Counted from the first letter of the stretch, positions 3,766 to 37,692 are shown. The stretch: DNA of 37,692 bases from Collodictyon triciliatum (GCA_043381765.1 JBHJMP010000869.1:1-37692), one strand, 5' to 3'. Program-made: numbers and translations. The notes: generated from the letters alone by a model not told the origin.

Positions 3766-3852
<87 letters not shown>

Positions 3853-3868: not shown

Positions 3869-4312
3869 AGAGAACAAGAGAGTTAGATAGGATAGTAGCA
3901 CTCTCAACCCTTCTCATGTTCTTCCAATTATTTATTTTTCAATTATTTTTTCTTATTTTTATGTGGCATTTTTAAGAAAATCTCGGGAAAAAAAAAGTAG
4001 CGAAAAAAAAAATATAGCAGGGAAAAATAACGGTGTTTGAGAATTTAATTTGGTTGATTTGATTCGCAGACAAATCAGAATTTCGAATCGCGCAGGAATC
4101 AAATAAACACAGAGCGAAGCGAAAGGAAATCCTTTCAAGCTTTTGCAAATAACGCGGAGAGTAAAAGCAAGAGAAATAGAGAGAGAGAGAGCGGGAGAGT
4201 GGACAGAGACTTTGTGTTTCTTTCCTCAGAAACTTGTTGGCTGCACTGAAAAGCTTTCACAGGGAAAGAAAAAAAGAAAAAGAAAAAAAAAAAGAGGTCA
4301 GCGAGAAAAGAA

Positions 4313-9727
<5,415 letters not shown>

Positions 9728-10358: not shown

Positions 10359-13300
10359 TTATTTGGTTTCATGTATTTCCTTAGAGACCTTCCAAACACT
10401 TGTCCCATCTTTCTGGTCCTGCGCAAATCACATAACAAGTCGGAAAAGTGAATGGAAAGGATGGCTTGCAAGTCAAAGACAATCACAACCTCATGTTGCG
10501 CTGCGTAACCAGTAAAGACATTGCAAACCTCGATTCTATATCCAAGAGAAGGCAGAGTCTCGTCACGAAGTCGGTCGCATTGCTGGAAAAGGCCGCTGAT
10601 GTCCTTCTGCTTCGCAAGGCTGCGTACCTGTCTCCGGAAGTCCAGCATCGCATCCACCAATCTGCCTGCGTCCTGATTCCATGAATATAATAATAATAAA
10701 ATTGTCAGCTAAGTAGCCTTGATATTGAAGAAATATAAGCACCATTTTTCTTATAAAAAGGATACTGCTACGATTAATTCCGTTTTATGCAAAGATTAGA
10801 TAAAATGAAAAAGAAAACCAATTTAGATAAAATTAAGACTTGTGTCGGGTTTGTGTGGTTCTGTGACGGGTGAAACATCTGATGGGATAACCCAAAGTTC
10901 ATCAGAGTGCGCTCTATCAAATCCTCTGCGTCTTGGATGAGGCCTGATTGGGTGCCCTTGAATAGAATATGATTCAGGTATCAGTCAGAGTGGTGGATGT
11001 TGTATGACAAAAAACAGGGAATGAAAACAGAATTTGTAGTTAACGATGCAAAAGAGAAGAAAAATAAATACTACCCCTGTTCAAATCGGTGTCAAGCGGT
11101 CGTTAGTCAAAGCGCCATGGATGAAGGAGCAATAAATGGTAGGTAAAGCCGACGCGAGGTTTGAAAAGTGTATCAAAGAATATTTGTTTAATAGCGCATG
11201 AAAGCATTACAGTGAAGAAAAATGGTAAAACATCTTTTAAAATAGAAAAAAAAATGTGTATATATGACAATCTTTGATTGTTTCTTTTAATTTTGATTTT
11301 CTGGACAGAACGAATCACCTCCCACAGAAATGTACTTATTCACATCACTAATCAGAGTCATGATAATGCGAATAACTCGGGGAGTGTCGAAATCATCACA
11401 CAAAGCATCATGAATATTATGCCGATAGTCTGTGATTCTGGCGTTAATGCGATAGTTTTAACAGTTTAACCAACATTAGCATATTTCTATGCATATTACG
11501 AAAGATTTTGCTTGCGTCCAGAAAACACGTTCTTGAAATTAAATGGGAAACCAAAATGTGATGTTAATTGAAAACATGTGTAAACGAAAAGAAAAAAACT
11601 AAAGAAGCGAACGATGTGTTAACTAAATCGTATTATTACAGTCTTTGAAGCTCCCTTTCATTTTGTGTCCATTTTCGGAGAGGCGGGTGTTGCTCCTTCC
11701 GCTTCAAAACTCTAAAATTATTGATAAGCTTATATCTGATTCTGGTTTTGAGTGGCGATTCGCTTTCCGACGTGGCAGTATGTAAAATTAAAATATAGAG
11801 GCTATATTTCGTGTTAAATATTCACAGTTTAGGTCTTAAACAAACGCTGTGTTTTGGAAGAACTCTTTGATTTTCCTCTCTGTGCCGGTAACAAGTTCCA
11901 TAGATTCTGGATGAAAGGACATCGTCGTGTTGTACTGATGCAGAAGGCACAAGAGCCTCCATTGGTCGGCAGAGTGAGACTTCAAAAACTCCTACATTTT
12001 GGATATATGCAGCACATTGTCATTCCCTAGGATAAGCCACACCGTGTTTTTTATGGTTACTTTAAATATTGTACAAAGGCATAAATTTCGGATGCATCTC
12101 ATTGTGCAAATGAATTGATCTCATAACAAGTGGCACCTGGATTGTGATAAAGTTCTTTAACGACTTTGACATTTTCCTTCCTTCGATGTGAAGATGACCT
12201 GGCGAAAAGATGAATAGATGAATTATGAATAAATTACTGGGCACGTGGTTGAGTCAAACAGTCTGAAATTTTTTCTATTGAGAGCCAATAAAATTCAGTC
12301 TTCTTTGCTCGTGTCTGGTAAATGACAGATGAGTTACAAACGACAATGCGATTTTCTTAATCGATGTAATTAAAGAAAAAAAACCTGAGTGCAAAAAGTA
12401 ATTCACCCACTGCTCGACGCCAAAAGCACCTTCACATTGAAAAAGCTCATTTTCGTGGTGTGGGAACTTTAAATCAATTCCACCAGAGTGCATATCAAGA
12501 TACTTGCCGAATAATGACCTAGTCAGTATCAAATCCATATAAATTGTACCTCGACTACAAATTTCTGCAGTGATTTTTTTGATTAAAAAAATGACATACA
12601 AAAAAAATTACTTAACATCGTGAATACAGAATATATATATATACACTATAAATGCAAATGATACTGCGTTATTTAGTACACTTGAAAAAAGACTTTATGG
12701 TATCCTATACACACCCACACATGGCCGAGCATTCAATATGCCATCCTGGGCGACCATGACCCCACGGCGATTGCCAACCAGGGGAATCAGTGGATGTGTT
12801 TTTCCACAGAGCAAAATCACGCGGCGATTTTTTATCCTGAGAGTACCCTTCATCTGTCGAGCGAAGAGTTGATTGATATTTTGCAAGTATTGTATCAAAA
12901 GAAGAGTACTGCGCAATCGAAACTGCAGTCTTGTGATGAATTATTCAAGGTGTTTATTTCTTTTGTTGATTGTTTCTTGTTTCTGTAAATTTTTTGAGTT
13001 TTTTTTTTTTGTTAAATATCCAAGAACCTTGGAAATCATCAGTGTTTTCTGGTAAGCTACGAGACGGGTCGAGTTTTCCCTGTGAATTTTTTAAGAGACA
13101 GTTTAGTTGTTAAATTTATACCACTGAAAGAAAAGACTTTACTCGACAGCTTCTGATGAACGTGATCAAACATATTCCTCATAGTGCCACAGATTATATC
13201 TTCGTTTCATCAGCATTCGATGACTTTTGTTGCATTAATAGTGAAGCAAACCTTTCCATTTCGGAGGCTGGGAATGTTGAAATATACAGAACCGGAGGAA

Positions 13301-14073
13301 ACATATGCGTGCCCCTGTGAATTTGGGTGTTTGAAATGATAGGAATATATATGTACAAATTTTGAAGACGCGAGGGCATGTGAAGTAGTTTATTGGTGAA
13401 ATGTCGGGATAATCTACATATTGTTAAGAATTTCGAGAAAACAGTTTTGTTTTGTTTTGTTTTGTTTTGTTTTATGTTTTTTGTTTTAAAAAAGTGCTAT
13501 AATAACGATAGATGCAACAAGTAGTAAAATGAGCGACCTTTTCAAGCAATTTGGTCGTCATATCTATGATGTCGGGTATGTGTTCGGTGACCCTTGTATA
13601 GGCCGAAGGAGGAAGAACCTGTATTCAAGATTTCGATTTAACGGAATTAAAATTAATTACCAGTGATAAATACCGTGTATCAGATAAATAGAGGCCTTCT
13701 TTAGAATTTTACTTTCATTCAACTGAAAAGATTAATAATGCATGTATATATTCATATATATTTCAATTCATGTTCACGCATCCACATCCTCTGTTTATCG
13801 TCATAAAAAAGACGATAAAATAGAAATTGAAATGAAATAAATATCTGAAACTAAAATGAAATGAAATATATATTAAAATTACGTTTAAGTTATTCATGTC
13901 TCGAATAAAGTCCCCCTCAAACTTCCTAGCGAGTTCCAACCACTGCGTCTTTGTTTCTGCAGCCTTGTTTATTATCTTGTCATCCACGTCGGTCATTCCA
14001 ACGACAAGGAATATGTTGCAAGCGAAGTGATTTGTGAGGATTCGACGAATAATATCGAAGCTCACATAAGTTC
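10359..14073 (-). CDS. CARS2: Cysteinyl-tRNA synthetase (class I), probably mitochondrial/CARS2-type; 5' end lost in the assembly gap
   Basis: Spliced motifs: [148 protein letters not shown]; stop at 10361-10359. The lack of the long cytosolic C-terminal extension suggests the organellar type (inference). Confidence 0.92.
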
Positions 14074-14517
14074 NNNNNNNNNNNNNNNNNNNNNNNNNNN
14101 NNNNNNNNNNNNNNNNNNNNNNNNNNNNNNNNNNNNNNNNNNNNNNNNNNNNNNNNNNNNNNNNNNNNNNNNNNNNNNNNNNNNNNNNNNNNNNNNNNNN
14201 NNNNNNNNNNNNNNNNNNNNNNNNNNNNNNNNNNNNNNNNNNNNNNNNNNNNNNNNNNNNNNNNNNNNNNNNNNNNNNNNNNNNNNNNNNNNNNNNNNNN
14301 NNNNNNNNNNNNNNNNNNNNNNNNNNNNNNNNNNNNNNNNNNNNNNNNNNNNNNNNNNNNNNNNNNNNNNNNNNNNNNNNNNNNNNNNNNNNNNNNNNNN
14401 NNNNNNNNNNNNNNNNNNNNNNNNNNNNNNNNNNNNNNNNNNNNNNNNNNNNNNNNNNNNNNNNNNNNNNNNNNNNNNNNNNNNNNNNNNNNNNNNNNNN
14501 NNNNNNNNNNNNNNNNN
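14074..14517. other. Assembly gap (444 N)
   Basis: Run of N; hides the CysRS N-terminus, including the HIGH motif. Confidence 1.
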
Positions 14518-14659
14518 CCTCGGGTCCATATAAAGGATACAAACTCTAATATTCTAACCGCTCATGATGATAATCGACAGGCGTTTTCAGAGGATGGTTT
14601 CTTTTCCTTCCAATTTTTTAGTTGAATATTGATGAAATGCCCATTCTGACAAATATAAT

Positions 14660-18500: not shown

Positions 18501-21500
18501 CCAACTTATTTTGTGACTTTGCAGATATTACAGTCAAAAAGAGAGATGTATAAATCTGTCCTTATCTCTACAATTATTTGGACACCTTTATGTTTTGGTG
18601 GCAATATAGAAAATTTATTTGATAGACTAATTTAAAAAACAATAAAAGAATTCTACAGTAGAGTCATCACTTTTCTCATTCCAAGGCACATGGAAACAAA
18701 ATAATCTTCTATCAATAGAGTTTTGGGACGCAATCACAAATTCTGTCTGCGGCATTAAAAGAAATTGTGTATGACTTGGGTGGTGTCCTCGCTGATATTG
18801 CTATTGCACAAAGCTGCAAAGGTTTATATCCAATTGTCATCACATATATTTATTCTTACCTATTTGACACGAACATAATCAGACCTTGTAGATGTTAAAT
18901 ATTAAATATGCAAATAATTTTATGTCTGATGATTTCTCATATGGTCCCAGATAATTCTGATCCGTTAAAAGGCACCGAAGGTCTTAATACATTCCTGTCA
19001 TATACATTCACTTTTTTTACATTATTATCTTTATCTTTATCTTTATCTTTATCTTTATCTTTATCTTTATCTTTATCTTTATCTTTATCTTTATCTTTAT
19101 CTTTATCTTTATCTTTATCTTTATCTTTATCTTTATCTTTATTTTTATCTTTGTCATTATTTTCATTGTCATTTTGATTGCCATTCTATAATTATCATTA
19201 TAATTCACTTTGGATCAAATAAAGGAAAAGTAATTATAATTATTATTACTATTGCTTCCTCCTCGTCTAATTGAGTTTTTGCTTTAAAATTTTGGTGTCG
19301 CAACCAACACACATACACACATACACACATACACACAAAAAAATCACAAAGGTTTCAAGGAAGCACCCAGGCCTGCGCTAAAAGTATTCTCTGATGAACG
19401 ACAAATGGTGAGTTGTTCACAAGCGGAAATATTGCTCTATCTCATATAAACCATCTGCTAAATAGCTTACTTCTTTTTCACGGATACAGGAAGTGAAACG
19501 TGCGTTCAGCACTAATGTGATTCCGGCCATGGAAATGAAAAATGTTCTTTTACTCATGGACGATTCGTCACTTTCAAGTATTTTGATCAAATCAAATTAC
19601 ATTTTTCTACTACAATTACTTTAAAAACATTCTGAAAATTAGTCGAGCAACTCAAGCTTATACATGCAACTTTACCGAATGATGAAGAGGTTAGATATAT
19701 TTTAAATTGAAACTGTGGCAAGCCACGATTAACATGATTTTTCCCCTTTATTCGATTCAAAGATGCTTTACCTGATTATATTATCTCGATCGTTTTCTCC
19801 GCTTAGCTTTGGTTTTAAGTCAATAAATCACCCCCTATTCTTCCCCTGTTGATAAATTTCGTTACGTCAGATGGAACAACTAAGACGCTTTGATCCGAAT
19901 AACCCAGCTGTTCGAATGGAGGAAGTGGCCACTATTCGAGTGTGTTGAACTCTTAATATTAAAACACTCCATATTTACATTCATATTCATATATATCGAA
20001 TACTCATATTGCTCAAAACGAAAGATTATGGGTATTCCGAGAATAAGAACCAGGCTGCAGGCGCACATTTTCAAACGAGAATTTCCTCAGCTTGCTGTTG
20101 ACTTAAAGACTGTTTGTATTCTACTTCCTTTATTTCAATAATATACACCCATGTTAAAATTGTTCGAATGCTTTTCATCTTATTCCTGATGAAATACTAG
20201 AAAATATACCGGGTATTTGATTAGCCAAAATCTCTTATTTTCTTTGCGTAGGAAGTTGACACTGCTTACAGAACATGCGAAGATTTCAAACTCCATCGAA
20301 AAATGCCTCGAATTCTTGACGTAAGATCTTTTTATTTGATTGGTCAATAATATTGTCATGCCCATATTAGTGAAGATCACGGTGATTGATACCATTATTT
20401 ACTATAATAGTCTATCAAGCGACTCATTCAAGCTAAAACTAACTCATATACTGCACCACCAAGAATCAACATCTTGGAAAATGTAAGGCTAAAGCATGCC
20501 CACGAATAAAATGCGTGCCTTTTAAGTTTTACTCGTTTTATAACTGAAATAATTTGTTAGGTAAAAGGAGTGGATTCAGATATTTGGAATGGTAATCTGC
20601 AGATTAATTATTTTATTTTCGAGAAAATATGATACCGACGTGATATAAGTGCCTTTGCTTGACATTTGGGTGCGAAAGAAAAATCATACATATTCTATAC
20701 AACCCGTGCAGTTTGTCATTTGATACATGCTATGCGACAGATCTGTATCGAGAGTGCTCCAGGTTCATGACCGATGTGAAACTCACAGAGACAGATTGCT
20801 GTATAACCCAGAAAATCTTATCAAGTAAGTTGCATTAAAGTTTATCCTGATATCAAGCTTATTCTTTAAATGTTTTATTCAGTTGTTGGCACTATTGCTT
20901 AATTTTTTAATTTTTTAACATGATGGTTTATATTTGGGAATAAACAATTTTAACTATATCATGGGTGTATTTTCTTGGCATTTAAAACATTTATCCAGAT
21001 GGCACACTTTTTTTATTTAAAAATTGTATCATATTGATGAATAAATAACAAACACTTTTATTGTATTTGTTGTAATAAATAGTCTCCATACCGCACATGA
21101 CCCAAAAAGCGGAATCCATCAAACAGAGGTTTTCACAGGTTTGATTTGCGTGGTTATTCGAGATTAGAGAAAGGAAACACAATTTATTCGAAAAAAACAT
21201 TATCAAGGTACTTATTTTTATTCAAGTATACATATGTTGTAAAAAAAAAATTTATTAGGCAGAAGAGGAATCGATAATTACTGAATCAAGAAAGTACGAT
21301 ATATTCAAGGATTCTATGACAGTAAGTAACGCAGACATATATGCTGCTTTTGAATTTATGGAATCTTAATCTTCGGCAACTCAGGGGTTTGTCTCAAAGT
21401 CAAAGCCAAGACTCGAAAGAATACTCGCACGTGTCAGTGAAACTGAGGTATTTTCTCATTTTCTTTTGAAGGCTATTATGAAAATATAGCATTTCCTGTA

Positions 21501-21708
21501 TGCATTTATATAATGCTTATTTTCCAGGTTTTTTTTTAATCATCTTCATGTAAAATATTATTAGGATATATACTGTGGGATATTGTATGGATTTGAAATC
21601 GAGTCTCTTACAAATGAGGTTGTTTTATATTACTCAATTATATCTGCAACTTATCAGTCAAACGATATTACACAGGAAATCATCCACCGATTTGATAAAA
21701 TATCATAA
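14660..21708 (+). CDS. Divergent formin-like protein (GBD/FH3-like N-terminus, no FH1, degenerate FH2), about 35 small exons
   Basis: Exons chain in frame. GBD-like: IMEKLNSHLKLNENGWVEQYHSLGGMDQLMGIF...ALDCILSML. FH2-like: LKVFSDERQMEVKRAF, EQLKLIHATLPNDEEMEQLRRF, IMGIPRIRTRLQAHIFKREF, AYRTCEDFKLHRKMPRILD, DIFKDSMTGFVSKSKPRLERILARVSETEDIYCGILYGFE. The start codon and some internal boundaries are tentative. Confidence 0.75.
15463..15532. repeat. poly(A) tract (~70 nt) in a formin intron
   Basis: Homopolymer run. Confidence 0.95.
19025..19152. repeat. (TTTATC)n microsatellite in a formin intron
   Basis: Hexamer array. Confidence 0.96.
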
Positions 21709-21963
21709 TTTAAGGTTTTTACTCCCTTAGGAATGCATGAAGGTTATACACGAGTTTTTCGTACAAGCTAGGGTATCCGTTTTCCAATTTTTCAATCTTT
21801 TTTTTTACCGAATTCATGATGAATTATTGCACTATGAAAATCATCATACATCTGACAAATATATTGAATAATAATGGTAATTAGTTTTGAGAGATAATAT
21901 GTTTATTTTGAATACCCATCTTTAGTCTATCTTCCAAGATCTGTCGCAAACTGGTGGCGAGGT

Positions 21964-22182
21964 TTATTATCATTATTATTATTATCATTATTATTATTAT
22001 TATCATTATTATTATTATCATTATTATTATCATTATTATTATCATTATTATTATCATTATTATTATCATTATTATTATCATTATTATTATCATTATTATT
22101 ATCATTATTATTATCATCATCATGGCAAAGCGAGCTATTGAATGATGAAACCTATACAACCTTTTCCCGATAGCGTTTTAAT
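21964..22182 (-). mobile_element. Dispersed repeat, copy 1: 3' end of a putative non-LTR retroelement/SINE with a (TAA/TGA)n tail; true extent unknown
   Basis: 22121-22182 is identical to 37631-37692. Both copies abut an (ATT)n/(ATC) array on the same side, which reads as a (TAA)n tail on the minus strand. Confidence 0.6.
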
Positions 22183-22899
22183 GATAAAAAAATTACTTTT
22201 AAAAAATAAAATAATTGCGCCATATAAAAATGAACATAAACTTAAACATAACAAAACCCTTATTCTCGTAACTAGGACAACCACATTCTGCCCTTGCGAA
22301 GTCAGCCCGTTGGATACAACCACATCAAACACCATGATTTTTCCGTAACACATCATTCTTTGCATAAGCAATTGTAAAATGTGATGATGGCAACCCCTCA
22401 GTATATACACAGAGTATTCAAACATACGCAGACACTATGAAAGACTGATTGAATACTTCTTTATTATGCCAGCAGACTCCAAGCCAAACCGAAGCTGAAG
22501 CCACCGTCCCACCATCTATACTTGCACAAACGTATGAGAAAAATAAACTTCTCGCATGTAATTTTTCTTTATATTCGCATACTGCTCCACTAATATTACC
22601 ATACCATAGGGAACAAAGCCATCCAGCCAACTGCGCGTTCGAATCGCTCACGAGGGCACCCGGTATGTCTGTTGTATATATCACCAGAATGAAATATCCT
22701 CTCTCGGCGATTTTCGTCCTTATGGCTGAGTCACACTTTGATTGGTCGAAGCAAATGAGTGTGTTTACATGGGGACATATGTGGTTGTAGAAAACGAGTT
22801 CTCTGAGGAGGGAACTCCACTGCCTTCGTACGTGCCGAAATAAAGCTCATTGAAGAACTTTGATTGTGACCTCGCTTTGTGCTTTATTCCTTTTATTCA

Positions 22900-23435
22900 T
22901 GTATGTAGTCTATGCGGTAACGACCTCCCCAGAATGCGCCGTGTGCCATAGTAGGAATAACTCGATCGAACACACATTTATTCAGTGCTCTCTCACTCTA
23001 ATGACTCACCCGAACGAGGAATCAATGTAGCCAGGCTTGAGAGCCATGTGCAATACCGATTCTTGAACAGCCTGCTGAAACACACCCATATTCTTCGCTA
23101 CTCTGACCACAAGCGAAGAGAGATGTGGGAATGTGTCGTGCGATATCTCCCACAACATGTCATACCCCTGCTACCCACGCAACCAATCAACCAGTTGGGT
23201 CGCCTACCTGACCAACTCGCTATCACTCACTTCTTTCCAGTGCTACCCTCTCCACAGTAGCATCTTCTACTCGCGTCTGCTTTCTACCAGCCCTCCCTCT
23301 ACTTGTCCTTATTTTAATGAATTTACCTTGAATCTTTACGCAAGTTTTTTCTCATAATTTTTCGTTATAGCCTTTATGTCTTTGCAGATTTTGGCAGGCA
23401 AGACAGCAAGAGACTACGAAAAAAAAAAAAAAAAA
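22900..23435 (+). mobile_element. Degenerate non-LTR retrotransposon ORF2 3' fragment (zf-RVT-like CCHC finger), possible poly(A) tail
   Basis: 22926-22988 translates SPECAVCHSRNNSIEHTFIQC (C-x2-C-x8-H-x4-C). A frameshifted downstream frame stops at 23260 and an A-run follows at ~23419-23435. Confidence 0.45.
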
Positions 23436-23550
23436 GAGGAACAGAGACGGGCGCCACACCTATTTTTATTTATATATTAACTAATCAATGTATAAACGTA
23501 TAAATTAATCTTATATTTAAATTTTGTCATTTATGTATGTTATTACCTCA

Positions 23551-26500
23551 TTATGCCGAGGCTCTTTGTCTCCACTCCGCCGCTTTTTCAGTATCTTTTT
23601 GAACAGCCCATCCATTTTCATAGCATTCAGCAACAAGCGACACGGCATGGGGGTACTTATATCCACCATACTGAAGCGTCTCAGCTATCTCATTCAAAAT
23701 TTCAAATGCTTCTGCTGAGCCTTGTTGAATTAACTCTTTCAGTTCTTCAAAACTATCTGCGACTTCACCTATAATTTTCCACTTTAACGATGATGGCACG
23801 TTAATTTCAACACCCCAGCCATTCTCGTAGCACTCAGCAAGAATTGAAATAGCCTGGGGGTACTTATAAGTGCTGTTGTCATTATTTTCAGCCATTTCTT
23901 TCAAAACAGCGAAGGCTTCCTTTGAACCTTGCTGAGCTAGTTCTTTCAGTTTCTCAAAGTTTTCCACTTTTCCGTAATACCGCGTTGCTTCGGTGATGTT
24001 TTTATCGACTCCCAAGCCGTTTTCGTAGCACTCAGCAAGAGCGGAAGCTGCTTGTGGATATTTACACCCACCATATTGGACAACGTCGACCATTTCCTTT
24101 AAAATTTCGAGTGCTCCGGCTGAACCTTGTTGTGTGAGTTCCTTTAGCCTCTCAAAACTTTCTGCATCTTCTCCACCGATAATCCTCCACTTAATTGATG
24201 AGGGGATGTCCTTTTCAATGCCCCACCCATTCTCGTAGCAATCTATAAGAATTGAAATAGCTTGAGGGTATTTGTATGAACCATAGTCATTTAACTCAGC
24301 CATTTCTTTCAAAATATCAAAGGCATCTTTTGAACTTTGCTGTGCTAGTCCTTTCAGTTTCTCGAAGCCTTCTGCAACTTCTCCACCGATAATCCTCCAC
24401 TTAATTGATGATGGGATGTCCTTTTCAATGCCCCAACCATTCTCGTAGCACTCTATAAGAATTGAAATAGCTTGGGGGTATTTACATGAGCCATACTCGT
24501 TCAATGAAGCCATTTCTTTCAAAATATCAAAGGCATCTTTTGAACTTTGCTGTGCTAGTCCTTTCAGTTTCTCGAAACTTTCCGTAAGCTCCCCACTGAA
24601 TAATTTCCACTTGATTGATAACGGGATATTCTTTTCAACTCCCCAACCATTCTCATAACACTCTGAAAGAACTGAAACAGCCTGGGGGTATTTGTATGAA
24701 CCGTATTGATAAATTTCGGCCATTTCTAACAGAATATCAAAGGCATCTTTTGAACTTTGCTGTGCTAGTCCTTTCAGTTTCTCGAAACTTTCCGTAAGTT
24801 CTCCACTGATTATTTTCCATCTAAGTGATAACGGGATATTCTTTTCAACTCCCCAACCATTCTCATAACACTCTGAAAGAACTGAAACAGCCTGGGGGTA
24901 TTTATAAGAGCCATACTCACAAATTTCAGCTGTTTCTTTCAAAACGCAGAATGCCTCAATTGAACCCTTTTGCGCGAGCTGCTTAATTTTCTCAAAATCC
25001 TTCGCCTTTATGTATTTTTCTATCGCTATTGTGTCATTTTTTTCAACTATCCATCCATTTTCATAGCATTCGCCAATAATGACAACAGCTTGTGGGTATT
25101 GAGGCTTATCACCCTGAGCTCTTCCCCATAATGTCCATTCGTACTCTTTAATATCCTCCATTTCTCTTAAAATATCCATAACATCTACACCCTGTCTTGT
25201 GAATTCCTTCAACCTCTCGAAGCCTTCTGTTATTTCTCCACCTAATATTCTCCACTTAATAGACGATGGGATATTTTTTTCGACGGACCATCCGTTTTCG
25301 TAACACTCTGAAAGGGCCGAAATAGCCTGGGGGTATTTGTATTTACCACTATCGTGCATTTGTGCCATTTCTTTTAACACTCCAAAAGCAATTTGTGAGC
25401 CTTGTTTTGCAAGTTCCTTCATACCTTCGAAATCATTAGAGTATTTAAGAGGGACAACCATTCTCCAAAAATAAGCTTTATCAGAGTCTTTATCAACTCC
25501 CCAGCCATTTTCAAAGCACTCAGCAACAAGTGGGAAAGTCTGCGGATATTTGTAATTTTCTTCCAAACTACCCACCAAAAGACTAAAAGTATTAAATTTA
25601 ATCTCTGCTATTTCCAGTAAAACACCGAAAGCCATAGATGAGCCCTGTTTTGCAAGTTCCTTAAGGCCATCGAAATCCAAAGAAGATTTAAGAGGGGCAA
25701 CCACCCTCCAAAAGTAAGCTTTATCAGAGTCTTTATCAACTCCCCAGCCATTTTCATAGCACTCCGAAATAATAGGGAAAGACTGCGGATATCTATGCTC
25801 TTCTCCGGGATTTTTATTAAACATAATCAGACTAATTTTTTTCGTTTCTGCTATTTCTAACAAAAGCTCAAATGCACTGTTGGAACCTTGCTTTGCGATT
25901 TGCTTCAATTTCTCACAGTTCTCTCTAACGTCCCCGCCAAGTACTTTCCACTTAAGAAACAACAGGATATCCTTTTCAGTACCCCATCCGTTCTCATAGC
26001 ACTCGGATAGTGCAGATATAGCCTTCTGGTACTTGTATTCTCCATTACAGCTTGTCTCAGCCATTTCTTTCAACAGACTGAATGCTTCGGTGATGCCTTT
26101 TTGGGCCAGTTTCTTAAGCCCTTCAAAATTAAAGGACGATTTTAATGGAGCAATCTGCCCCCAAAATTGAGCCTTTTCAGTATCTTTTTCGACACCCCAT
26201 CCATTTTCGTAGCATTCAGAAAGAATGTCAAGGGCTCGAGGGTGTTTATATATTCCGTAATCATTGTCCTCGGCCATATTTTTCAGCTGATAAAATGCAT
26301 TCGATGAACCTTCTTTTGCTAAACTTCTTAATTTATCAAAGTTCTCAGCCTTACCATACCAATTAGATGCCTTATCAATATCTCTATCTATACCCCAACT
26401 ATTTTCGTAGCATTCACCAACAATCGAAGCGATCTCTGGGTATATATACGATTCGTTGTCAGTAAATTTTGCAGTTCCTTTTAAAACTACAAATGCTTCC

Positions 26501-29500
26501 TGCGATCCTTGTTGTGCCAGCTGCTTGACTTTTTGAAAATTCTCAGCTTTGCAGAGCCACACCATATACCTGATATTATCTGTTTCAACAATAATACCAT
26601 TTTCATAGCAATTAGCCATCACTTGGGCCTGGAAATTTGTATGTTTCTTTTCCGTACAGTAACTCACAAAGGATTGATCAAAAGAAACAGCTCCAAGGGA
26701 AAGCAGTAGTGATTTGTTCAACTGGCTCAAACCTGTAACATTTCTTATTTTAATATTTCCTCCCTCAAGATTTTTTTGGCTTGTGTACACCATAGCCGTC
26801 CCATCCAACATTCTTCCATTACTAATCAAATTCATCGCATCACTCATCTCGTTAAATTCTGCAATTATGCTTCCATTTTCTCCCCTCTTGGTTAGTTGTT
26901 TCTTTGAGTTACATTTTATATCAGACTTTCTCAAGACGAAAATTCTATTTTTTGTCCCCAAATCCCAAATGCATATAATATGGTCAACACTTGCTGAAGC
27001 CAACCACTTTTCACCACTGGGCCCTTGGATATTGGTTACATGAGTAATCGCATCATTATGGCCCCTTAATCTCATAATCTGAGTTCCAGTGACTACATCC
27101 CAAACAATAATAATCTTATCATCGCCTCCTGAAGCTAGCCAACTCTCACCGTTAGGGCCTTTGAATATGCAAAAAGCATTGACAGATCCACTATGACCGT
27201 CAAAATTATAAACTTGAGAACTAGTAGTGACATCCCAAATACGTATCGTATTGTCACTACTTCCTGATGCCAACCAGTTTTCACCTTCGGGTCCTCGAAT
27301 TGTGCAAAGAACTTTGATAGATCCACTATGGCCGTCAAAATTATAAACTTGAGAACTAGTAGTGACATCCCAAATACGTATCGTATTGTCACTACTTCCT
27401 GATGCCAACCAGCTTTCACCTTCGGGTCCTCGAATTCCACAAACACTGTTCACAGAGCCAGTGTGACCTTCTAAATTTTTCATTAGGCTTCGAGAGGCCA
27501 AATCCCAAATACGTATTGTATTATCATTACTCCCTGATGCCAACCAGCTTTCACCTTCGGGTCCTCGAATACTACAAACACTGTTCACAGAGTCTGTGTG
27601 ACCTTCCAACATTGTTATTTGATTCCCACTGTTTTCATCCCAGATTCCTATTTTTTTATCTTGGCTCGCCGAAGCGACCCAATTCTTTCCTTCTGGTCCT
27701 TGAATACCACAGATAATGTTAACTGGCTCTTTGTGAACATGAAGTGTTTTAATTTGATCTTCAAAGGCCTTATCATAGCTACTTATGATATCATCATGAC
27801 ACACAGGTCCAAATTCACCCTTATCAGAGGAGTCTTGGGAATTACAAATACCATTAAAAAAATATGTGTATCCCTCTAATATTTTAATTTGACATCCTGT
27901 GGATAAATCCCAAAGGCGTACTGTTCTGTCCTGACTTCCGGATGCCAACCACTTTTCAAAATTAGGACATTCAATACTACAAAGACTCGAGATATAGTTT
28001 GTATGTCCCTCCAGTATTTTAATTTGGTCTCCTGTAGCTACATCCCAGATACGTATTGTATTGTCATGGCCTCCAGAAGCCAACCAGATTTCACCATTTC
28101 GCCCTTCAATGCCACATACACTACTGACCGTACTTGAATGACCTTGAAATAATTTTACTTGGCTTCCAGTAGAAACATCCCAAATACATACTGTTGTATC
28201 GCTACTACAAGATGCCAGCCAGTTTTCTCCGTTTGGACCTTTAATCCAGCAAACAGAATTTACCCAGCCATTATGGCCAACAATATTTCGAACATAATCA
28301 CCATTTGACAGATTCCATATGCGTATAGTATTATCGTTGCCTCCTGATGCCAGCCAGTTTTCTCCGTTTGGACCTTTAATCCAGCAAACACAATTTACCC
28401 AGCCTATATGGCCTCCTATTGTTTTTAATTGCCTTTCTGTGGCCACATCCCAAATACATATTGTACTAGTGCCTCCTTCGAGAAGATTACTGCTGCTTCC
28501 TGAGGCTAACCAACATTCACTTTGTGGTCCATTGATAACACAAATACTATAGATGTTACCCGTGTCCCCATGGAGTGTTTTTATATGCTTCCCTGATATC
28601 ACATCCCAAATATGGATTTTACCCCAACTTCCAGAAGCCAACCAATTTTCACCATTGGGTCGCTGAATGCTACAAACAACGTTGACACCATCTGATTGAT
28701 TTTCTATTTTTCTCACTTGGTTTCCAGTACCCACATCCCAAATGTGAATTGATTTATCGCTACTACCGGAAGTCAGCCAATTTTCGCCATTGGGTCCTTT
28801 AATACTGCATACACTTGTAACAGAATCAGTATGGCTATCTAATTTTTCGTTAAGAGCTCGGAATTTCACGTGGCTCATATTCGAGGAGTCAAAGATACAG
28901 TCACCGAGCAGCGAATTACTGAAATCGACCCCATCCAAGTTAGCGCCAGTGAAATTGGCACCATCAAGGATCGAGTTGCATAGATTTGCATTAGGAATTT
29001 TGATGCCTGATAGATCAATTCCTCTGAAAGAAATGTTCATAAAGTTTAAGCATGTGATAGCATCAGAGGCAGAATCTGCTTTGCTCTCATCGATTCGTGA
29101 CACATAGACGATTTTAAACAAATTTTTGATTATAAGCTCACGATTCCAATCTTTTTCCAATTTTACATCGTCCAGTATTTCACTGATAAACTCTTTGACT
29201 CTAGTAAACTCCACAGGCTCTTTGTTTATTCCGACCATTTTTGAATGGAGGGATAAATATTCGCATGAGTTTAGAGTTATAGGATGAACCCATCGAAGTT
29301 GAATTTTAAACTTGTTATTCATTTTTGTCCAAAAAACAATGGCTTCGCTGTGCTGCTTCAATTTCATGTACAGCTTATCAATTTCTGTGCAAATAGTCCA
29401 TATCATGTTCTTATTAATTGCGAAATTTTTACAGAGCAAATAAACTGCTTTTTTGAAAAATTCAATGGATGTTTCGTGTTCATTATTTTCTTCCATGAAT

Positions 29501-29605
29501 CTTGCAATTCGAAGACATTGAGAAACATCATAAATAGAAAGCTTAGTATTTGATTCCTTTCTGATAGTAATTGCCTTGTGAAAATACTCTATCACTGCAT
29601 CAAAT
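23551..29605 (-). CDS. 6,055-nt intronless terminal exon of the STAND gene (TPR, pentapeptide, WD40 x14, SEL1-like x15)
   Basis: The 2014-aa ORF in the track; acceptor tttttatccag| at 29606; its phase matches the upstream TPR exon donor at 29709. Confidence 0.92.
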
Positions 29606-32600
29606 CTGGATAAAAATCCAATAAATAAATAAATTATGATTTATTCAAGGGGTTTTCGTTTTAATCCATAAAATGGGGATTTTTTTAAAATTAAAAACAA
29701 ATGAATTACCTTTGAAGTTCAAAATTCGTTCTTGCGACATTCTCTAAAGCGTCTGAATAGCAGGCATGTTTTTCTCCTAAGGTGTTCTTACTTATTTCCA
29801 GCGCTTTGCAATAAGCGTTTAAAGAGGCTTCATAGCTAAGGTGATTTTGTTAAATTTTTTGAGGTGATGAATAAAATTTTTTAATCTTCCTTTCACTTTT
29901 GAGGTATTCAAATTAATATTCGATTTGAGATTCAAGAAATCAAAAATATAGCTTGCATATTAATTTGATTTAAATTAAAAAATTTAAAAAATTATTGAAG
30001 TTTACTTTTTAATTCCAAAATTAATGTCCCCAATCATCCCATAGCAATTTAAAACATTTAAATGCTCCTCACCATTTTCAGAGATAAAGTCATCAAGATA
30101 CTTATCTAGTAAAGCCATCGCCTCTAATTTCCTATATAAAATTTTGATGAGATTGCATAAAATAAAAAATAATGGAGGAATTTTTTTCATAAATTCAAAT
30201 TTTTTCCGCTGATTCGATTCAAAGTTATGAACTCAAAAATGTACTTTTCACATCTCAGGTACACGGCCACTATCAATTGGATTGCTGGATATAATAATTC
30301 GTGTTTGCTCCCCAAAGTGTTTTCAAGAATTATCCTTGATTGATCAAAGTTGGAAAGAGCCTCCGTGTAGCTACGCGGATAAATCAATGATTTTTTATTC
30401 TTCCTTTCAATTTGCGAGGGTTGAAATAATTATAAGATAAAATGCATCGACATTTAGATAATTCTCTGATCAAAATATTGCTTACTTTTTCAGTGTCATC
30501 GACAAATGTCCAAATTTTCTATAGGAGTCCGCCACAAGAGGGTGCTCATTTCCACATTTATATTTACGAATGGCGATGGATTTTTTATAGTAGGATGCAG
30601 CCATGTCAGTTCTACAGAGAATATTCCGAATTAGTTCCCTGAATCTTATTTCCCTGAATCTTATTTTTAAATCTGACGTTATGAATATTACTTGGACTGC
30701 TTTAAGAATAAATCTCCAAAGTGTTCGTATGATTGAGCAACTTGTACATCATTCTCTCCAAGTTTTACAATTCTGAAATCCAAGGAAATATTATATCTTT
30801 CCAAAGCCTCATCAAATCTGCATTTAATAATGTTAATATTTTATGCATGTTGATAACAGAAAATGATAAATAGCATTTATCTGTATTTGTGATGAGCACG
30901 ATTGTGTAGGACTACATAAAATATTTCAAAATACTTCTCCTGCTGCTCGTAAATAGATCCAATGCGTTCATGAATATCAGCGATGCTCAGTATATTAGTT
31001 TCATTTTTCTCAAGAGAAAAGAGGCATCTCTCAAAATAAACAATTGATTCAGAAAATCTACAATTCATAGAAATTAAATGAAGAAATGTGAAATATTTTT
31101 TAATATTAAAATGGAACTCAAAATATTTAGCGTTACAATATTTAAAACCTTTGCAGATTCAAATAGACTCGCCCAAGGTGTAGGTAATCAAATGCCTTCG
31201 ACTCTGCTCGGCATCAGAAAGGATCAGAATTTTTACTTGATCTCATAATAAGTAAAAATTTCGCTCTTGATGTGAATGAGTTACCTTCTAATCGACTCTT
31301 TGCAAGGCGAGCATTCAGGACAGATAAGAGAAATGTATTCTCGTATGATTCTTGAAAAAAATCTACGAGCATGCCCCCCACTTTTCTTAGAGTCTTGAAT
31401 AAATTTCAATTAACCAGTTGCTTAATTCCTCAAAAGTAGCTAATTAAAGGATACGAATCGTAATAAAATCTACCTTAGCCATGGTTCCATAAGCATCTGT
31501 GTAATTTGCAACTCCTTTCTTATGAATTTCTTTCCATATATTGAAAAATTCACAGCGATGATGACCTCCAAGCATGGATATTACGACCTTGAAAGAGAAC
31601 ATCAGTGGAAAAGTAAAATAGTAATTCAAATATATATATAATTGCTACTTATATTAGACTTTTGTAACATTACATGTTCTTGTTTCAAATATTCGACAAG
31701 CAATTCAAATGATTGTCCTCTAAGCAATTGGTAGCATATCTCGGCAGCAAGCTCCTCATCCACATTTAATGTCTCTGAATACTGACTGAAAAGCCATTTT
31801 CCGTATTCCTCATGCGCTTTTACCATTTCTGCACTTTCAATGAAGTATAAATGCTCCACTGTATTTACGAGTGAAGGATGAAAGAGGATATATCTGTCGA
31901 ATAAAAAAATTAGTACAAAGTCAAAATATAACAAATTTATGAGAAGTGAATCACTAAAGCAAAAACCTTCCATTGCGAACAAAGAGGTAAACTTTAAGAT
32001 AAAAGAAGAAATCTCTCCTAATGCGATATTTTATTTTATTAGTTGAAGTATTGAAACATGTCAAGAAAGATAGAAATAATTTGATGAATTATATATTGGT
32101 ACCACTCCAGAGGTTGAAATTTAATTCCCATGATATCCTTTACGTAATTTTCCAACTCCCATTCAGTCAAGCCGATGCGAGAGACTTTGAGAACCTTCAT
32201 CGACGCAGAAACAAAATCTCTATCTGCTTATCATTTTTAATGCATTAATAAAAAACAAAGTGACATCAAGTAGTTTGTGTAATTGAAAAAAAATTTACCA
32301 CTTCCATCAAACTTGAGCTTCCAGCCCTGAAAAATTGAACTGTAGACCTCAGTCAATCCCTTAGCAGATAAAAGGGTATCCAAATATTCGTATTCATCTT
32401 TATAGAATCTGAGTGCGCAGATAGAACACAATATGGTGCGAAGATAGAGGGGACATCCTAAGACAGAATAAAAAACTATCAAAATTGAGCTGAGTTATTT
32501 TAAAGGTCTTAAAATAAACTTTACCCGTTTGCTCTATGTTTGATAGAATTAAATCTAATTGCTTCTCGTCCATTTTCTTTTCATGCAGAATGAGAAAATA

Positions 32601-35600
32601 TTCAACAATTTCCTTCACTTCGTTAACAGGGAGCTTTGTCATAGTGATGATATCTAGACCACGTTTCTTGGCGGTCTTGAAGGTTTTTAATAAAAAAAAT
32701 TTTTTTTTTAGAATTTTCTCATTTTTGAGACTTTATATTTTTATTTTCAAGTCTTTTTGTCCAATTTAAGTGTGGAAAAATTACGTTGTATGTAGTATGT
32801 GTATCGGTGGTCGAAACAATGATCAATATGTTTGATGGTGTTTCTTTTGGAAGCCAGCTCAGAAGATGAGGTGCTGGTGTTCCTTTAGACGGCTTGATTT
32901 GGTCGATAGCATCAATGAAGAAGACAAATTTCTCATTCCTATATAAATTACGGTTAATAAGTGAAAAGGTACCTTGGCCAGAAATTTCTATTGTTTTCAA
33001 TTTCTGCAAGATGGTGGTTGATGCTTGTTTCTACATAATTTTCCAAAAAAAATATATAAATGCCTGTTCGATTCTTGAATCATTCTCAATAATCCATGGA
33101 TTCCTTCCTTTTCGTAATCTGAAATAGAGTGGAATTGAGCAATGTTTTTTTATTCTATTGTTTTCAATTTTGTGCAGGATGGTGGAGATGTTGGCTTTGG
33201 TGGAATTGAACAATGTTAAAATATCATGAATAAAAAAGAATGCCCATTTTAATGATAATCTAGATGGTAACCAACCAGTGTCAAGTCTTTTTTGTCCGAC
33301 AAAACTGAACCTTTCAGTCACGAGAGTCCAAAATCGAATCGAAATACTTTAAAAATTATGTATTTAGCCAAAATTTATTTCAGATAAACAAATAGAATAT
33401 TGATGTATCTACTATTTGGATAAGGAATTTTCGAAATACTGTATGATAGAAATTGTAATTCTACCTTTCAACGTAATTGCTGTAGTTGGTGCACCCAACA
33501 AAATGGAAAAAAACGTTAAATCCAGAGTCATCTTGACTTTTTAGATCTCTCACTGCCGCGGCCAGGAGAGATGACTTTCCAATACCAGACTCGCCAGCAA
33601 GGACTATGGGATTGGAATTCTCGACATCCAGCTGGGTCATGACCTGATGTATAAATTTTATTATTGACAAAACAAAGTCAAACTTAATTAGGTACATTTT
33701 TCATTAATATATTATAAACCCATTCACTTTTTCTTTTATTGTCTTGAGATTTTCCTTTCTTCCACTGAATCCAAAGAGTTTACTCATCATGAATTGACTT
33801 TGTGCTCGGTCTTCAGAATTTTTTTTCTGAATCAATATAATATGAATGTTTTTTGTTTTTTTTCTGAATCGTTAAACATAATATGAAATTTTAAAGAACT
33901 TATAACATCATATACGAATCTAAATATTACGGGCTCAATTCCAAAATCGCGTTCAATTGAGTAGTTAATGTGGTGAACCAGATACTCTGAAAATTCGCGT
34001 GCTTCTTTGTATACGGTATGCCCATACTTGCTCTTAACTTTCTTTTTTAACTCGTTCTGTCTTTTTTCCTGGATTAATTTTTCATTGATTTAGATCAATA
34101 CAAAAGAGATAATGACTTTTTGAATTATCTGAAATAATTGAATAAATATTGAATGTCTTTTACATCCTCTTCATCTTCGACTTGGAAATTTTTCCTTTCT
34201 TTTTCACTTATGGAAGTTTTAACCGCATGTTGTTCATCGCGAACGTAGAAGAAGACACGACTACAGGCTGGTTTGTCAATCATGCACGCGTATTGAATCT
34301 AAAATATTTGATAAGTTTATTTCTTTCAAAGAAATTGCTTATTTATTGAATTATATTCACCTCATATTCGGATACACTAAGTCCAGGCATTTCATCAATG
34401 AAAGGAAAATAGCAGTTGGTCTGACTACACCACTCAACCGATATGTCCTCAATGGTGGCATCAGGCTTAGTTTTCAGCAGTTCTTGAAGGCGATCATGCT
34501 TATTTAACTCCGCTTTGCTTTGGTCGGGTATCCAACCGTAGCTAGAACCAAGGGAACACACAAAGTACGGGCATTTTTCGATTGAATCCAAACAACGGAC
34601 CAAGGTCTTTTTTAAAAGAAATCATGGTTAATATAATTGAAAAAATTGGTTATGATAGTTATTAAGGAATATTGATATTTTAACTACCAATCCCTCGTTG
34701 CTTCCCTCGAAGTTTGTTCCATGTTGCAAATCAATGAATACAACCTCCAATCCCTTCGATTTAGCAAAATTTATAATCCTAAAGAAAAGCTTAGGATATT
34801 AGAAGATTTGAAGTCTCTTCTCCCATTCTATGAAATAGTTAAAAGAAAATTGAAAAGAAGCTAACTGAGTTGCTCCGTGCTTGAAAAACTCTTTTCTCTC
34901 CTCTTCCATGTCATGAGAGCTGAAAGACAGGAAGATGCGAATAACACGCTCATGAAAAACTGTGGGTGGAAGCTTTCTCGATGTTTCGTATCTTCGTGGG
35001 GCCAAATCCCACTTCTTGAATTCTTTTCCCTTTAAGCCTTGTCGAGCAAGCTTCATCTATTTGATAATAGAATTTTTTTACAAACTTAGGCAGAATTTTA
35101 CAACGGCATTGCATCTTGTTAAATGAAAAGACTTATATTGACCTTATCAAGAAGGATGCAGGTTCTGATCAGGACAATAGAACCTTTTTCCTCCAATCCA
35201 AGACCTAAATCAATTCATATTTAAAGACTTTTTTCTTTTTGAAAAAATTAGGTATAAAAATTTGGAGCCTTGTTCTCACTTTGGAATGGAAACGGAGCAT
35301 CTGCTCTTTCGTAAAGCAACTTGGCACAATCATACCTCGAATGGCATCTTTTCTGCATTATTTGTATATTTGAGCATTGAAATATTTATTTTGATATCAG
35401 AAAAATCAAGACATAATATATGCCAACCTCGAGGAGGTCAAAATGGTCAACGCTTTTTCCGATAAGATACCAGATAATATCGTTCACCAAATCTATAAAA
35501 AAAATCAATATATAAATATTATAAATGAGATGCATATTTAAGTATCAATATCATATAGCATAACCTCGCTGCACTTTGAATCTAATAAAGGAAAAGGTAT

Positions 35601-36100
35601 GAATATCACATGGAATGCGCTTACCAGCGTAATGAAGTTCAATTCTAGTTGATTCATCGCGCACAGTCAATTTTGTAAACCAATCAACAACGAGTTTTTG
35701 ATTCTCTTCAACGAGAGCCTTTTCCTCAATAGCTTGGTCCCTAATTAAATTCCATAAATGTGAAACCGTGAAATCATTTGAATTTAGATCAATTCTGTCA
35801 AGGTGAATCAGCATTTACGAAAACAAGCGAGAATGGAAGTTTCCCAAGGGATATCCCGTGACCATCTCTATCAGCACGGTCAAGAAAAAGCCGTCCTCAA
35901 AGTCATCACAAATGTTTCTCGCCTTGAGTTCGATTTTATTCAAGTGGTGATTTACCCACTCCAGGATAGCCTATTATATTCACGAGTTTGTAAATAAGAT
36001 TCGAAGTATGGCCAAACTATAAATAAAAAATAGATTAGAAGCTGACCTCGTCAATGGTGATCAAATCAACCCCTTCGATGCTTGCTTCGATTTCGGACAT
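23551..36100 (-). CDS. Giant multidomain STAND/NLR-like protein: degenerate CH domain(s), DUF4062, NACHT/AAA_16-type NTPase, TPR array, pentapeptide repeats, 14 WD40, 15 SEL1-like repeats; ~31 exons, ~3,200 aa (estimate)
   Basis: ATG at 36100. CH-like ILEWVNHHLNK...DDFEDGFFLTVLIEMVTG. DUF4062-like RVIRIFLSFSSHDMEEER, FIDLQHG, CLDSIEKCPYFVCSLGSSYGWIP, LSVSEYEIQY. Walker A GESGIGKS (33595-33572); Walker B FVFFIDAIDQI; LSWLP; GCPLYL; SRIGLTEWEL. 42-aa TPR exons at 31057-29710 splice in frame (AG|A) to the terminal exon 29605-23551. Confidence 0.85.
23555..26625 (-). repeat. Coding tandem repeat: 15 SEL1-like units of ~65-81 aa (core YPQAxxxLxECYENGWGVEKD)
   Basis: 15 CYENG/CFENG/CYENS cores counted; 210-bp DNA periodicity at 24331/24541/24751. 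Confidence 0.92.
26960..28840 (-). repeat. Coding tandem repeat: 14 WD40 units of ~45 aa/135 bp (consensus GHxxxVxSVCxIxGPxGExWLASGSxDxTIRIWD)
   Basis: Counted from the translation; unit 8 is degenerate; 135-bp DNA periodicity at 27184/27319. Confidence 0.95.
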
Positions 36101-36465
36101 TTTTTTGCAGTTCTTTGTTTTCTGTTATACATATTAAGCACGCTGTGTATTAGTGCCCAAATGTCGTTTCTTTTCTCTTTCATAGATTCATTTTGAAAGA
36201 AACCCTCACACAAAGCACCCTTGAACATAAAATAAATGATTAATTATATTTCACCAAAAAATAACGAGATTGGGTCTTCTTTTTTTTTTTTACTCTCTGA
36301 AAATTACTATATTCTTTTTTAGTTGAAATAAAATCTACGTATTCATTTATTTCTAATTTATTTGAATGAACATTGTGCATATAAATGGTATAATCGCAAA
36401 GAGAAATACCATGTAATGAATTTGATAATGTAATATCTGTCCCAAGGAACGTGGTCTTCATGTGT

Positions 36466-36533
36466 TTTGTTGTAGTTGTTGTTTTTGTTTTTGTTTTTGT
36501 TTTTGTTTTTGTTTTTGTTTTTGTTTTTGTTTT
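36466..36533. repeat. (GTTTTT)n microsatellite
   Basis: Hexamer array upstream of the STAND gene. Confidence 0.95.
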
Positions 36534-37481
36534 CAAATCCAAAATCAGACTTCATTTAAGTCTGTAATGCGAATAAATAAATAAAAAAAAAATTGAATGC
36601 ACCCAGGTCAAAAGAACCAACATCACAACAGAGCACCGAATTATTTCAGAAGGAAAAGTGCACACAGGTTGTCTTTCATTTCTTCATGATGCCAATAGAT
36701 GAGATTTGGTCTTATTTCCAGAAGATAATATTCCCTCATGAAAGTGTCGGCACGCAAGAGGCATTTGATTTCCTTTTGGCGGCTTGCCTACCTTATAAGC
36801 TGGTGAAAATGATTGCCCTCTGAGGCGATTTCTGTTTTATATCAGACTTTGAATACTATATATGGAATTTATATATAATTACTGTAATTATTCATTTCAT
36901 GGACATTTTGAGTAAGATGTATCATTAAAATTAGTTTAATGTTGATATTTATAATATACAAAAAACATTCTGCTGGCTTGTTAATTTTGACCTCGTTGGT
37001 TTTTTACCGCATAGGGAAATGAAAATTTTGGCAATCAAAATGATTTTTGAGTCCATGTCCATTTCTGGATTATATAATAGCACAATCAATCGACACTATT
37101 CGGCACCCGTTTTTGTGTTAAAATTTCAAATAAGTGGGCTGTGTGCGCATGCCGTGCGAATTTAGAGGATTAGTGGGTCAGGGGTGGTGTCACATCCACA
37201 GAGAAATGGCGGTGATATGCAGGTGTGCCTGACGCAACACGCATAATGCTAATGCTATCGATAAGCATATCCTCTGCCGGTATTATTCAAATACATAAAA
37301 ATTTGGGTTATTTAAATGAAACAGTATATTTTAGAAGTGAGGCATGTCACGTTAGGTTTCATCAAAACAACCTGGATTTCAACAATCGCACCCGCCTACT
37401 TCGAATCGAATAATGGAACAATCATCGCTCCTTAAGAGTCCCCAGGTGGAACCATTACATATCCCCGCTAATATTACTGAA

Positions 37482-37692
<211 letters not shown>

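Follow-up and report, generated by a model that had tools for sequence, protein, structure and literature searches.

A 6-kb intron-free terminal exon carrying pentapeptide, WD40 and Sel1-like repeats in a putative NLR-like gene of Collodictyon triciliatum

The DNA considered here is a stretch of 37,692 nucleotides (nt) from Collodictyon triciliatum (GCA_043381765.1 JBHJMP010000869.1:1-37692), referred to below as the window, with positions counted from its first letter. It holds, on the minus strand, an intron-rich gene for a NACHT-type ATPase that is predicted to end in a single exon of 6,055 nt. An original prediction, made from the sequence, read this exon as a chimeric capture, in which a module from another NACHT family had been grafted onto an NPHP3-like gene. 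The longest open frame lies at 29640-23551 on the minus strand and runs for 2,029 codons from stop to stop, compared with 142 codons for the runner-up in 20000-37692; of the N-free frames listed for the remaining window, the longest has 218 codons. Since about 0.06 stops per codon are expected (a rough estimate of our own), so long a frame is not a product of chance. An acceptor with a polypyrimidine tract and AG ('...ttatccag/A', the slash marking the boundary) sets the exon start at 29605, and a TAA stop at 23553-23551 closes it. Upstream, our own sequence-based splice model divides the gene into about 22 exons, 73-312 nt in size, separated by introns of 43-170 nt with a GC content of 24%, the stretch 33346-33035 being doubtful; this bears out the contrast with exons mostly under 400 nt that had first drawn attention to the exon. 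A tetratricopeptide repeat (TPR) unit begun upstream runs over the last intron (29710/29605) into the 6,055-nt exon. Because the exon limits fit and this unit spans the last intron, the gene model confirms the exon as the predicted 3' terminal exon of the upstream NACHT gene. The gene as modelled exceeds 3,100 codons, and its predicted domain order is calponin-homology (CH), DUF4062, NACHT, eight 42-residue TPR units, a pentapeptide-WD40 cassette and 15 Sel1-like units (Table 1).

Within the translated frame (P0001, whose residue numbers are used below), Pfam recovers the order of TPR, pentapeptide/WD40 and Sel1 repeats that had been proposed: weak TPR matches at residues 10-106, Pentapeptide (PF00805) at 204-242 (2.8e-12), WD40 from 266 to about 910, and Sel1 to the end, with no Pfam family found in residues 900-1050. 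Residues 13-138 comprise three 42-residue TPR-like units without introns and residues 139-165 a linker, behind which a junction motif forms the N-terminal edge of the shared cassette. The motif 'LFKIVYVSR...' of the original prediction starts where it was placed (residue 174, position 29121) and ends near 28981 rather than at 28860; its second motif, NVTGLSQLNKSLLLSLGA, was found at residues 968-985 (26739-26686). The 14 WD40 blades are enough for two seven-bladed propellers. Their inter-blade DNA identity ranges from 49 to 81%, being highest among blades 9-12 (65-81%), with a tandem period of 135 nt. Pairs of full-length Sel1 units are mostly 49-66% identical in DNA, and up to 72% beside units 9-12, with a tandem period of 210 nt; units 9-12 form a younger block of 71-89% DNA identity. 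An AlphaFold model of residues 160-1061, built from a 15-row alignment (mean predicted local distance difference test score 80.2, predicted template modelling score (pTM) 0.48), shows two helices at the junction motif, a beta-helix with a strand every five residues in the pentapeptide part, propeller blades, Sel1 helices and, ahead of the cap helix, a short beta coil; at a pTM of 0.48 the model offers no usable placement of the domains relative to one another.

Residues 13-1030 were searched against 1.84 billion representative proteins (E<=0.001) and matched 291,916 of them, nearly all via WD40. The top match, P0009 (2,619 residues, 1,163.7 bits), was set apart from the others and aligned by BLASTP at 40% identity over 895 residues with eight gaps, unbroken over TPR, linker, pentapeptide and WD40. 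When the 150 listed hits were compared with the window by tblastn, seven gave matches upstream of the exon, and these were colinear only for P0009 and, partially, P0020. P0009 yielded 15 upstream matches in order, from CH through DUF4062, NACHT, helical and TPR exons into the terminal exon, and Pfam found CH, DUF4062 and NACHT in its N-terminal 1,150 residues (whole WD40-rich hits were swamped by propeller families, so N-terminal parts were scanned instead). TPR tail, linker, pentapeptide and cap occur together in three of the 150 listed hits (P0009, P0010 and P0020), the pentapeptide piece in 16 and the Sel1 piece in none. The TPR-tail piece (residues 13-110) matches six relatives and the linker piece (111-195) those same three, all of them Diphylleia proteins of the TPR type, and only in this family does the linker appear to occur. 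A search with the N-terminal half of P0009 returned 34 proteins and added three relatives: P0244 (50% identity to that half) and P0245 (61% over 58% of the query), both with pentapeptide and WD40 repeats, and P0246 (39%), a Diphylleia transcript with DUF4062, NPHP3_N and TPRs only. Lacking the cassette, P0246 is a half-only paralogue of the kind that the original prediction had proposed to look for. The next matches were DUF4062-NACHT-TPR proteins from metagenomes, at 22-26% identity. The TPR-to-cassette part is also present in P0244, P0245, P0020, P0010 and P0052, and the whole design in P0009. EukProt labels assign eight of the proteins (P0009, P0010, P0020, P0052, P0244, P0245, P0021 and P0246) to Diphylleia rotans. 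Six of these transcripts (P0009, P0244, P0245, P0020, P0010 and P0052; EukProt EP00002) resemble the window in CH, DUF4062, NACHT, TPR, linker, junction, pentapeptide, WD40, cap and Sel1, P0009 throughout and the other five in part, at 31-42% identity in the cassette alignment and 40-47% in the N-terminal half, whereas they carry one Sel1 unit rather than 15 and have cassette lengths that imply other numbers of WD40 blades. P0245 differs further in an extra C-terminal region behind its Sel1 unit. At about residues 1640-1849 of that protein are W- and G-rich repeats ('GRDWKWGDQDGG...WWRVKWD'), which we take to be MIB/HERC2-like.

The upstream exons were annotated with a Pfam scan of 40 minus-strand open-frame pieces and by comparison with these relatives. 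On the CH exons, tblastn places P0009 residues 189-262 and P0244 residues 127-175, colinear with the remaining gene, and P0009 has a CH domain of its own (Pfam 4e-11). The first 188 or so residues of P0009 match nowhere in the window, so that the gene may start beyond 35970, or its 5' end may be missing. A further small exon of the same gene is seen at about 35143-35205 on the minus strand. For DUF4062, the piece 34346-34621 scores 9.5e-06 (26.2 bits, above the cut-off of 24.7), and P0009 residues 346-516 align to the DUF4062 exons at 42% identity, with a score of 42.4 bits for the domain in P0009. The domain stands N-terminal to the NTPase, as is characteristic of DUF4062/NIR-NACHT STAND proteins. 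A P-loop ('GESGIGKS') in exon 33631-33465 and a Walker B motif ('FVFFIDAID') in exon 32938-32785 fall within the Pfam NACHT pieces 33464-33700 and 32722-33030, respectively, and the NACHT exons are colinear with P0009 residues 606-798. The helical and winged-helix exons map to P0009 residues 801-1123, and Pfam gave no match for them. Each of the five TPR exons is exactly 126 nt long, equal to one 42-residue unit and in identical phase, and P0009 residues 1157-1373 match them unit for unit; such uniformity is the pattern expected if exons were duplicated. An NPHP3 orthologue was considered and ruled out by a TPR_NPHP3 score of 13.2 bits, far under the cut-off of 100, and by the long region (about 1,860 residues) that still follows the TPRs.

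Table 1. Predicted features of the gene in the window, from its 5' to its 3' end.
Feature	Position	Strand	Residues of P0001	Evidence
CH (calponin-homology) exons	35671..35970	-		Pfam CH 0.0014 on piece 35818-35970; tblastn
DUF4062 (NIR, TIR-like), three exons	34361..35056	-		Pfam and exon model
NACHT NTPase exons	32785..33631	-		Motifs, Pfam pieces, colinearity with P0009
Helical and winged-helix region behind NACHT	30935..32675	-		tblastn to P0009, P0020, P0244, P0245
Five TPR exons	29710..30817	-		Gene model; Pfam TPR_12 on three pieces
Terminal exon, intron-free, stop codon included	23551..29605	-		Open frame, acceptor, stop
Three TPR-like units and linker	29146..29604	-	13-165	Weak Pfam TPR
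Junction motif 'LF.IV..S+.D...AAS.AIT.LNF...F.G'	29020..29145	-	166-207	Alignment, own hidden Markov model (HMM)
Pentapeptide-repeat beta-helix	28855..29055	-	196-262	Pfam PF00805, fold model
14 WD40 blades, mostly 45 residues each	26962..28854	-	263-893	Pfam, fold model
Cap 'GGN.....GLS..N..LL..GA.SFD.DFV.YC' and first Sel1 unit	26530..26787	-	952-1037	Own HMM
15 Sel1-like units, 39-81 residues	23554..26655	-	996-2029	Pfam PF08238 3.9e-56

The original prediction took the joining of the two halves of the gene for a graft; that such a graft was recent or specific to this locus is contradicted by the same TPR-linker-cassette junction in Diphylleia P0009. A tree of the N-terminal half (13 rows, 855 columns) gave the order (P0246,(P0244,(P0009,P0245,P0020,window))) with Shimodaira-Hasegawa-like approximate likelihood ratio values of 99-100. 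A tree of the cassette, made from the junction, pentapeptide and cap regions (18 rows, 186 columns), placed seven TPR-type rows beyond one branch, with P0244 basal, and put P0021, a protein described below, among the non-TPR carriers. The branching order is equal in the two trees. Because both halves branch alike, although the cassette tree is weak, a single fusion before the family diversified would fit; the separate phylogenies and the codon usage, both offered as checks on the graft, gave a congruent order that includes a full-length homologue, albeit with weak support in the cassette, and nothing foreign. Such congruence is the outcome that the original prediction itself had named as refuting it. 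For the GC content of third codon positions the values are 0.39 (upstream), 0.34 (TPR tail), 0.32 (pentapeptide and WD40) and 0.36 (Sel1), and chi-square tests of codon use (p 0.02 and 0.002) are inflated by the repeats; the terminal exon carries no foreign signal in its codon use. No second copy of the cassette was found elsewhere in the window. Colinear homology with the cassette-free P0246 stops near P0009 residue 1282, and homology with other cassette carriers begins at P0009 residue 1528, which is residue 166 in the window; the exon begins, at its 5' edge, opposite P0009 residue 1373. These alignments and trees show the cassette fusion behind the DUF4062-NACHT-TPR half to be old and common to the window and a multi-copy Diphylleia family.

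The relatives also bear on the origin of the Sel1 array. In every relative with an alignable end, one unit alone, '...SFD.DFV.YCES....FQA..MA.CYE.G..VEKD..KA.EW', comes behind the cap. P0009 and P0020 end within 20 residues of this unit, while behind it P0010 and P0244 have short tails and P0245 and P0021 other sequence. In the window the same unit stands immediately behind the cap, and the last unit of the array matches the C-terminus of P0009 at 52% over 27 residues. These alignments show that the cassette ancestrally ended in the cap plus one Sel1 unit. Residues 990-2029, used as a query, returned 62 proteins (best 91 bits, 20-25% identity), all generic Sel1 arrays, and no close relative of the array was among them. 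Because the relatives end in one unit that matches both the first and the last units of the window, the array is best read as an in-place tandem expansion, from one unit to 15, of the cassette's own last repeat, and not as a third captured piece.

The NACHT, pentapeptide and WD40 module that the original prediction named does exist: NACHT-PPR-WD40 (PPR, pentapeptide repeat) NOD-like receptors are reported, in the available text of a preprint, as common to Mycoavidus cysteinexigens and Mortierellomycota (bioRxiv 10.1101/2021.12.02.471044). That it is a shared unit was likewise supported, both by P0021 and by unnamed or bacterial-labelled proteins. P0021 has a Diphylleia label and a different NACHT (34.7 bits), with neither DUF4062 nor TPR; behind its NACHT follow junction motif, pentapeptide, WD40, cap and one Sel1 unit, as in the window. 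Because tblastn of P0021 against the window gave no match upstream of the terminal exon, the N-terminal half of the gene appears not to be homologous to the P0021-type NACHT. The P0021 alignment starts at residue 108, and the shared part is counted here from residue 166, where the motif HMM starts. The junction HMM matches its 11 seeds (which include P0047, P0117 and P0013), two cluster-mates of seeds and seven further proteins, 276 having been fetched. Ten junction carriers were inspected; nine have a P-loop, seven the winged-helix motif 'F.H.S..E[YF]' and six a cap resembling 'GLS..N..LL.Q.GA'. Their order is P-loop, 'FIHxSxxEY', junction, pentapeptide and WD40, and P0047 belongs to a record titled as a Gammaproteobacteria metagenome-assembled genome (MAG). 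The cap-plus-Sel1 HMM matches at full length only in the window, P0009, P0010, P0020, P0244, P0245, P0021 and the cluster-mate P0159. These matches show junction, pentapeptide, WD40 and cap as a shuffled cassette that also follows other NACHT types. The window shares with NACHT-PPR-WD40 proteins a pentapeptide region directly before WD40, together with the junction and cap motifs; rather than lying within about 110 residues of the 'FIHxSxxEY' winged-helix region, its cassette is separated from the NACHT part by eight TPR units and the linker. A word-based junction search was uninformative, returning seven plain pentapeptide proteins, none with NACHT or WD40, and when residues 110-310 were looked up in the Atlas no score reached 0.9; the cyanobacterial and ciliate WD40/pentapeptide clusters that came up are leads rather than evidence.

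The exon probably forms the true 3' end of a NOD-like receptor (NLR)-like STAND gene, in which an old cassette fusion was followed by amplification of Sel1 in place. The cassette would have stayed intron-free and grown by tandem duplication into a long exon, with Sel1 expansion contributing roughly half of the length. By analogy, the product most likely acts as an NLR-like sensor of the STAND class, with DUF4062 as its TIR-like effector. In the available text of two preprints, DUF4062 is described as a TIR-like, NAD-cleaving (NADase) domain that serves as effector in bacterial Avs-type defence proteins and in human TEP1, and as adjoining NACHT in NWD1, NWD2 and NPHP3 (bioRxiv 10.64898/2026.05.01.722283; 10.64898/2026.09.04.749371). 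As in APAF-1, TEP1, NWD and fungal NLRs, the repeat arrays might keep the NACHT module off until a ligand binds, and oligomerisation would bring the N-terminal DUF4062, a possible NADase, and CH domains together. A wider scenario, which we offer tentatively and consider doubtful, is that pentapeptide, WD40 and cap make up a bacterial-type sensor cassette, free of introns and horizontally mobile, which would have moved among unrelated STAND NTPases and between bacteria and eukaryotes and been captured as a terminal exon by the DUF4062-NACHT-TPR gene of a Diphylleia-like protist lineage. It would have kept its bacterial, intron-free state since then, while amplification of Sel1 and WD40 units reshapes it as a diversifying immune receptor.

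Several points weigh against the reading of the exon as a genuine part of an NLR-like gene with an old fusion. The splice 29710/29605 is predicted from sequence, and all close relatives stem from one transcriptome. The Pfam NACHT matches, which are to exon pieces, reach 4.2e-05 (23.9 bits) and 0.0092 (16.3 bits), under the cut-off of 26.7; P0009 scores 25.2 bits, likewise under it, and there are matches to nSTAND1 and NPHP3_N as well. With values of 69/39 on 186 columns, the cassette tree is weakly supported. The N-half tree was made by a quick method; the branch of the window in it is long (0.87), and its row was threaded onto P0009 via tblastn, with a possible pull toward that protein. Because the 5' edge of the exon lies within the seam bracket, from about 1282 to about 1528 in P0009, the exon could also be an old captured block. 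As to function, NWD1, NWD2 and NPHP3 were inactive as NADases in vitro, according to the available DUF4062 preprint text, and a PDB search with the DUF4062 exon gave as its best chain 11gz_A (a TEP1 domain) at E=0.43, not significant, a 27-residue match too weak to place the catalytic glutamate E1008.

It is unlikely, though still worth weighing, that a once intron-rich gene instead lost the introns of its 3' part when it recombined with an mRNA that had been partly reverse-transcribed; no other version of the proposed retroposition still fits. Such a loss would suit the five upstream TPR units, which share an intron site where the three inside the terminal exon have none, as well as an intron-free zone that starts about 155 codons before the first residue common to other cassette carriers; yet the TPR-like units inside the terminal exon are degenerate and might have lacked introns all along, and neither a poly(A) remnant nor a target-site repeat was found beside the stop codon. 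The relatives, being transcripts, give no intron positions, which counts against intron loss and against an always intron-free cassette alike. Recent capture at the locus, whether by recombination, retroposition or horizontal transfer, we regard as very improbable: the contrast in exon size and the presence of the cassette behind other NACHT types and in the Gammaproteobacteria-titled record would favour it, but it is largely refuted by a junction kept at 40% identity in Diphylleia, with P0009 matching at full length, and also opposed by the congruent trees, the host-like codon use and the single cassette copy in the window. Least credible of all is an artefact in which two adjacent genes or a mis-assembly are read as one, since, despite an assembly gap elsewhere in the window and a gene join predicted from DNA, the first 48 codons of the frame hold no ATG, a good acceptor is present, a TPR unit carries on over the last intron, and complete Diphylleia transcripts join the same parts in the same order.

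The surroundings of the gene offer some further observations. The whole gene lies between the two copies of a direct repeat (21972-22182 and 37482-37692), which agree at 94% over 211 nt and comprise an ATT/ATC microsatellite with an identical unique flank of about 60 nt. The window ends within the right copy. The repeat might represent a dispersed element or else the border of a duplicated segment. Many other long microsatellites are present (e.g., 1-280, 3750-3890, 9170-9430, 19000-19230 and 36400-36550), and a run of N at about 14070-14520 marks the assembly gap, the window containing 444 N in total. On the plus strand, at about 4600-9600, are exons that we take to encode a kinesin-2 (KIF3-like) motor ('SSRSHSIF'), presumably pointing to a flagellated or ciliated eukaryote, and on the minus strand, at about 12000-13000, exons that presumably encode a cysteinyl-tRNA synthetase ('KMSKSLKNF'). 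Among sequencing runs, none of RNA is listed as containing the sampled words of the window; two freshwater-metagenome DNA runs contain 0.14 and 0.06 of these words, and contigs from freshwater metagenomes over 30294-33628 show 0-2 differences per 150-290 nt, some being at least 99% alike. By these matches, the organism or a close strain appears to be present at low depth in a freshwater metagenome. None of these short, low-depth contigs reached across an exon junction, and none revealed altered numbers of repeats.

In the literature search, no description was found of a NACHT-pentapeptide-WD40-Sel1 or DUF4062-NACHT-TPR architecture, nor of Diphylleia NACHT proteins (one irrelevant match was returned). 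The gene changes no major view. It extends to a little-studied protist group the view that STAND immune-type receptors are put together from exchangeable cassettes; it combines DUF4062, a newly described NADase effector, with a sensor arm for which earlier reports came from endofungal bacteria and Mortierellomycota; and it provides a clean example of a single terminal repeat that would have grown into a 1,000-residue array within one exon.

Among known systems, the two preprints on DUF4062, in their available text, describe TEP1, NWD1, NWD2, NPHP3 and TTC41 as having, like the window, DUF4062 beside a NACHT ATPase with WD40 or TPR behind (bioRxiv 10.64898/2026.05.01.722283; 10.64898/2026.09.04.749371); in contrast to them, the predicted protein joins TPR and WD40 and adds CH, pentapeptide and Sel1. 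APAF-1 likewise has a STAND ATPase followed by two propellers, said in the available DUF4062 preprint text to fold back on the ATPase, but it has another type of NOD and effector and no pentapeptide, TPR or Sel1 repeats. In fungal NLRs, effector, NOD and repeat modules are re-assorted between lineages and repeat numbers change (Dyrka et al., 2014; PMC4986451, as far as its available text goes), and the window is similar in both respects. The threshold given there for repeats that are highly conserved internally is at least 85% identity over at least 100 residues; conservation in the window is lower, the best pair, Sel1 units 9 and 10, having 89% DNA identity over 70 residues, short of that length, and neighbouring units 71-84%. 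The NACHT-PPR-WD40 receptors share with the window a sensor arm made of a pentapeptide region and then WD40 in a NACHT protein; the likeness to those of Mycoavidus and Mortierella is one of published architecture, as given in the available preprint text, while the junction motif, and in several cases the cap, come from the unnamed proteins that were fetched. To that design the window would add a TPR array between NACHT and cassette, N-terminal DUF4062 and CH domains, and the Sel1 array.

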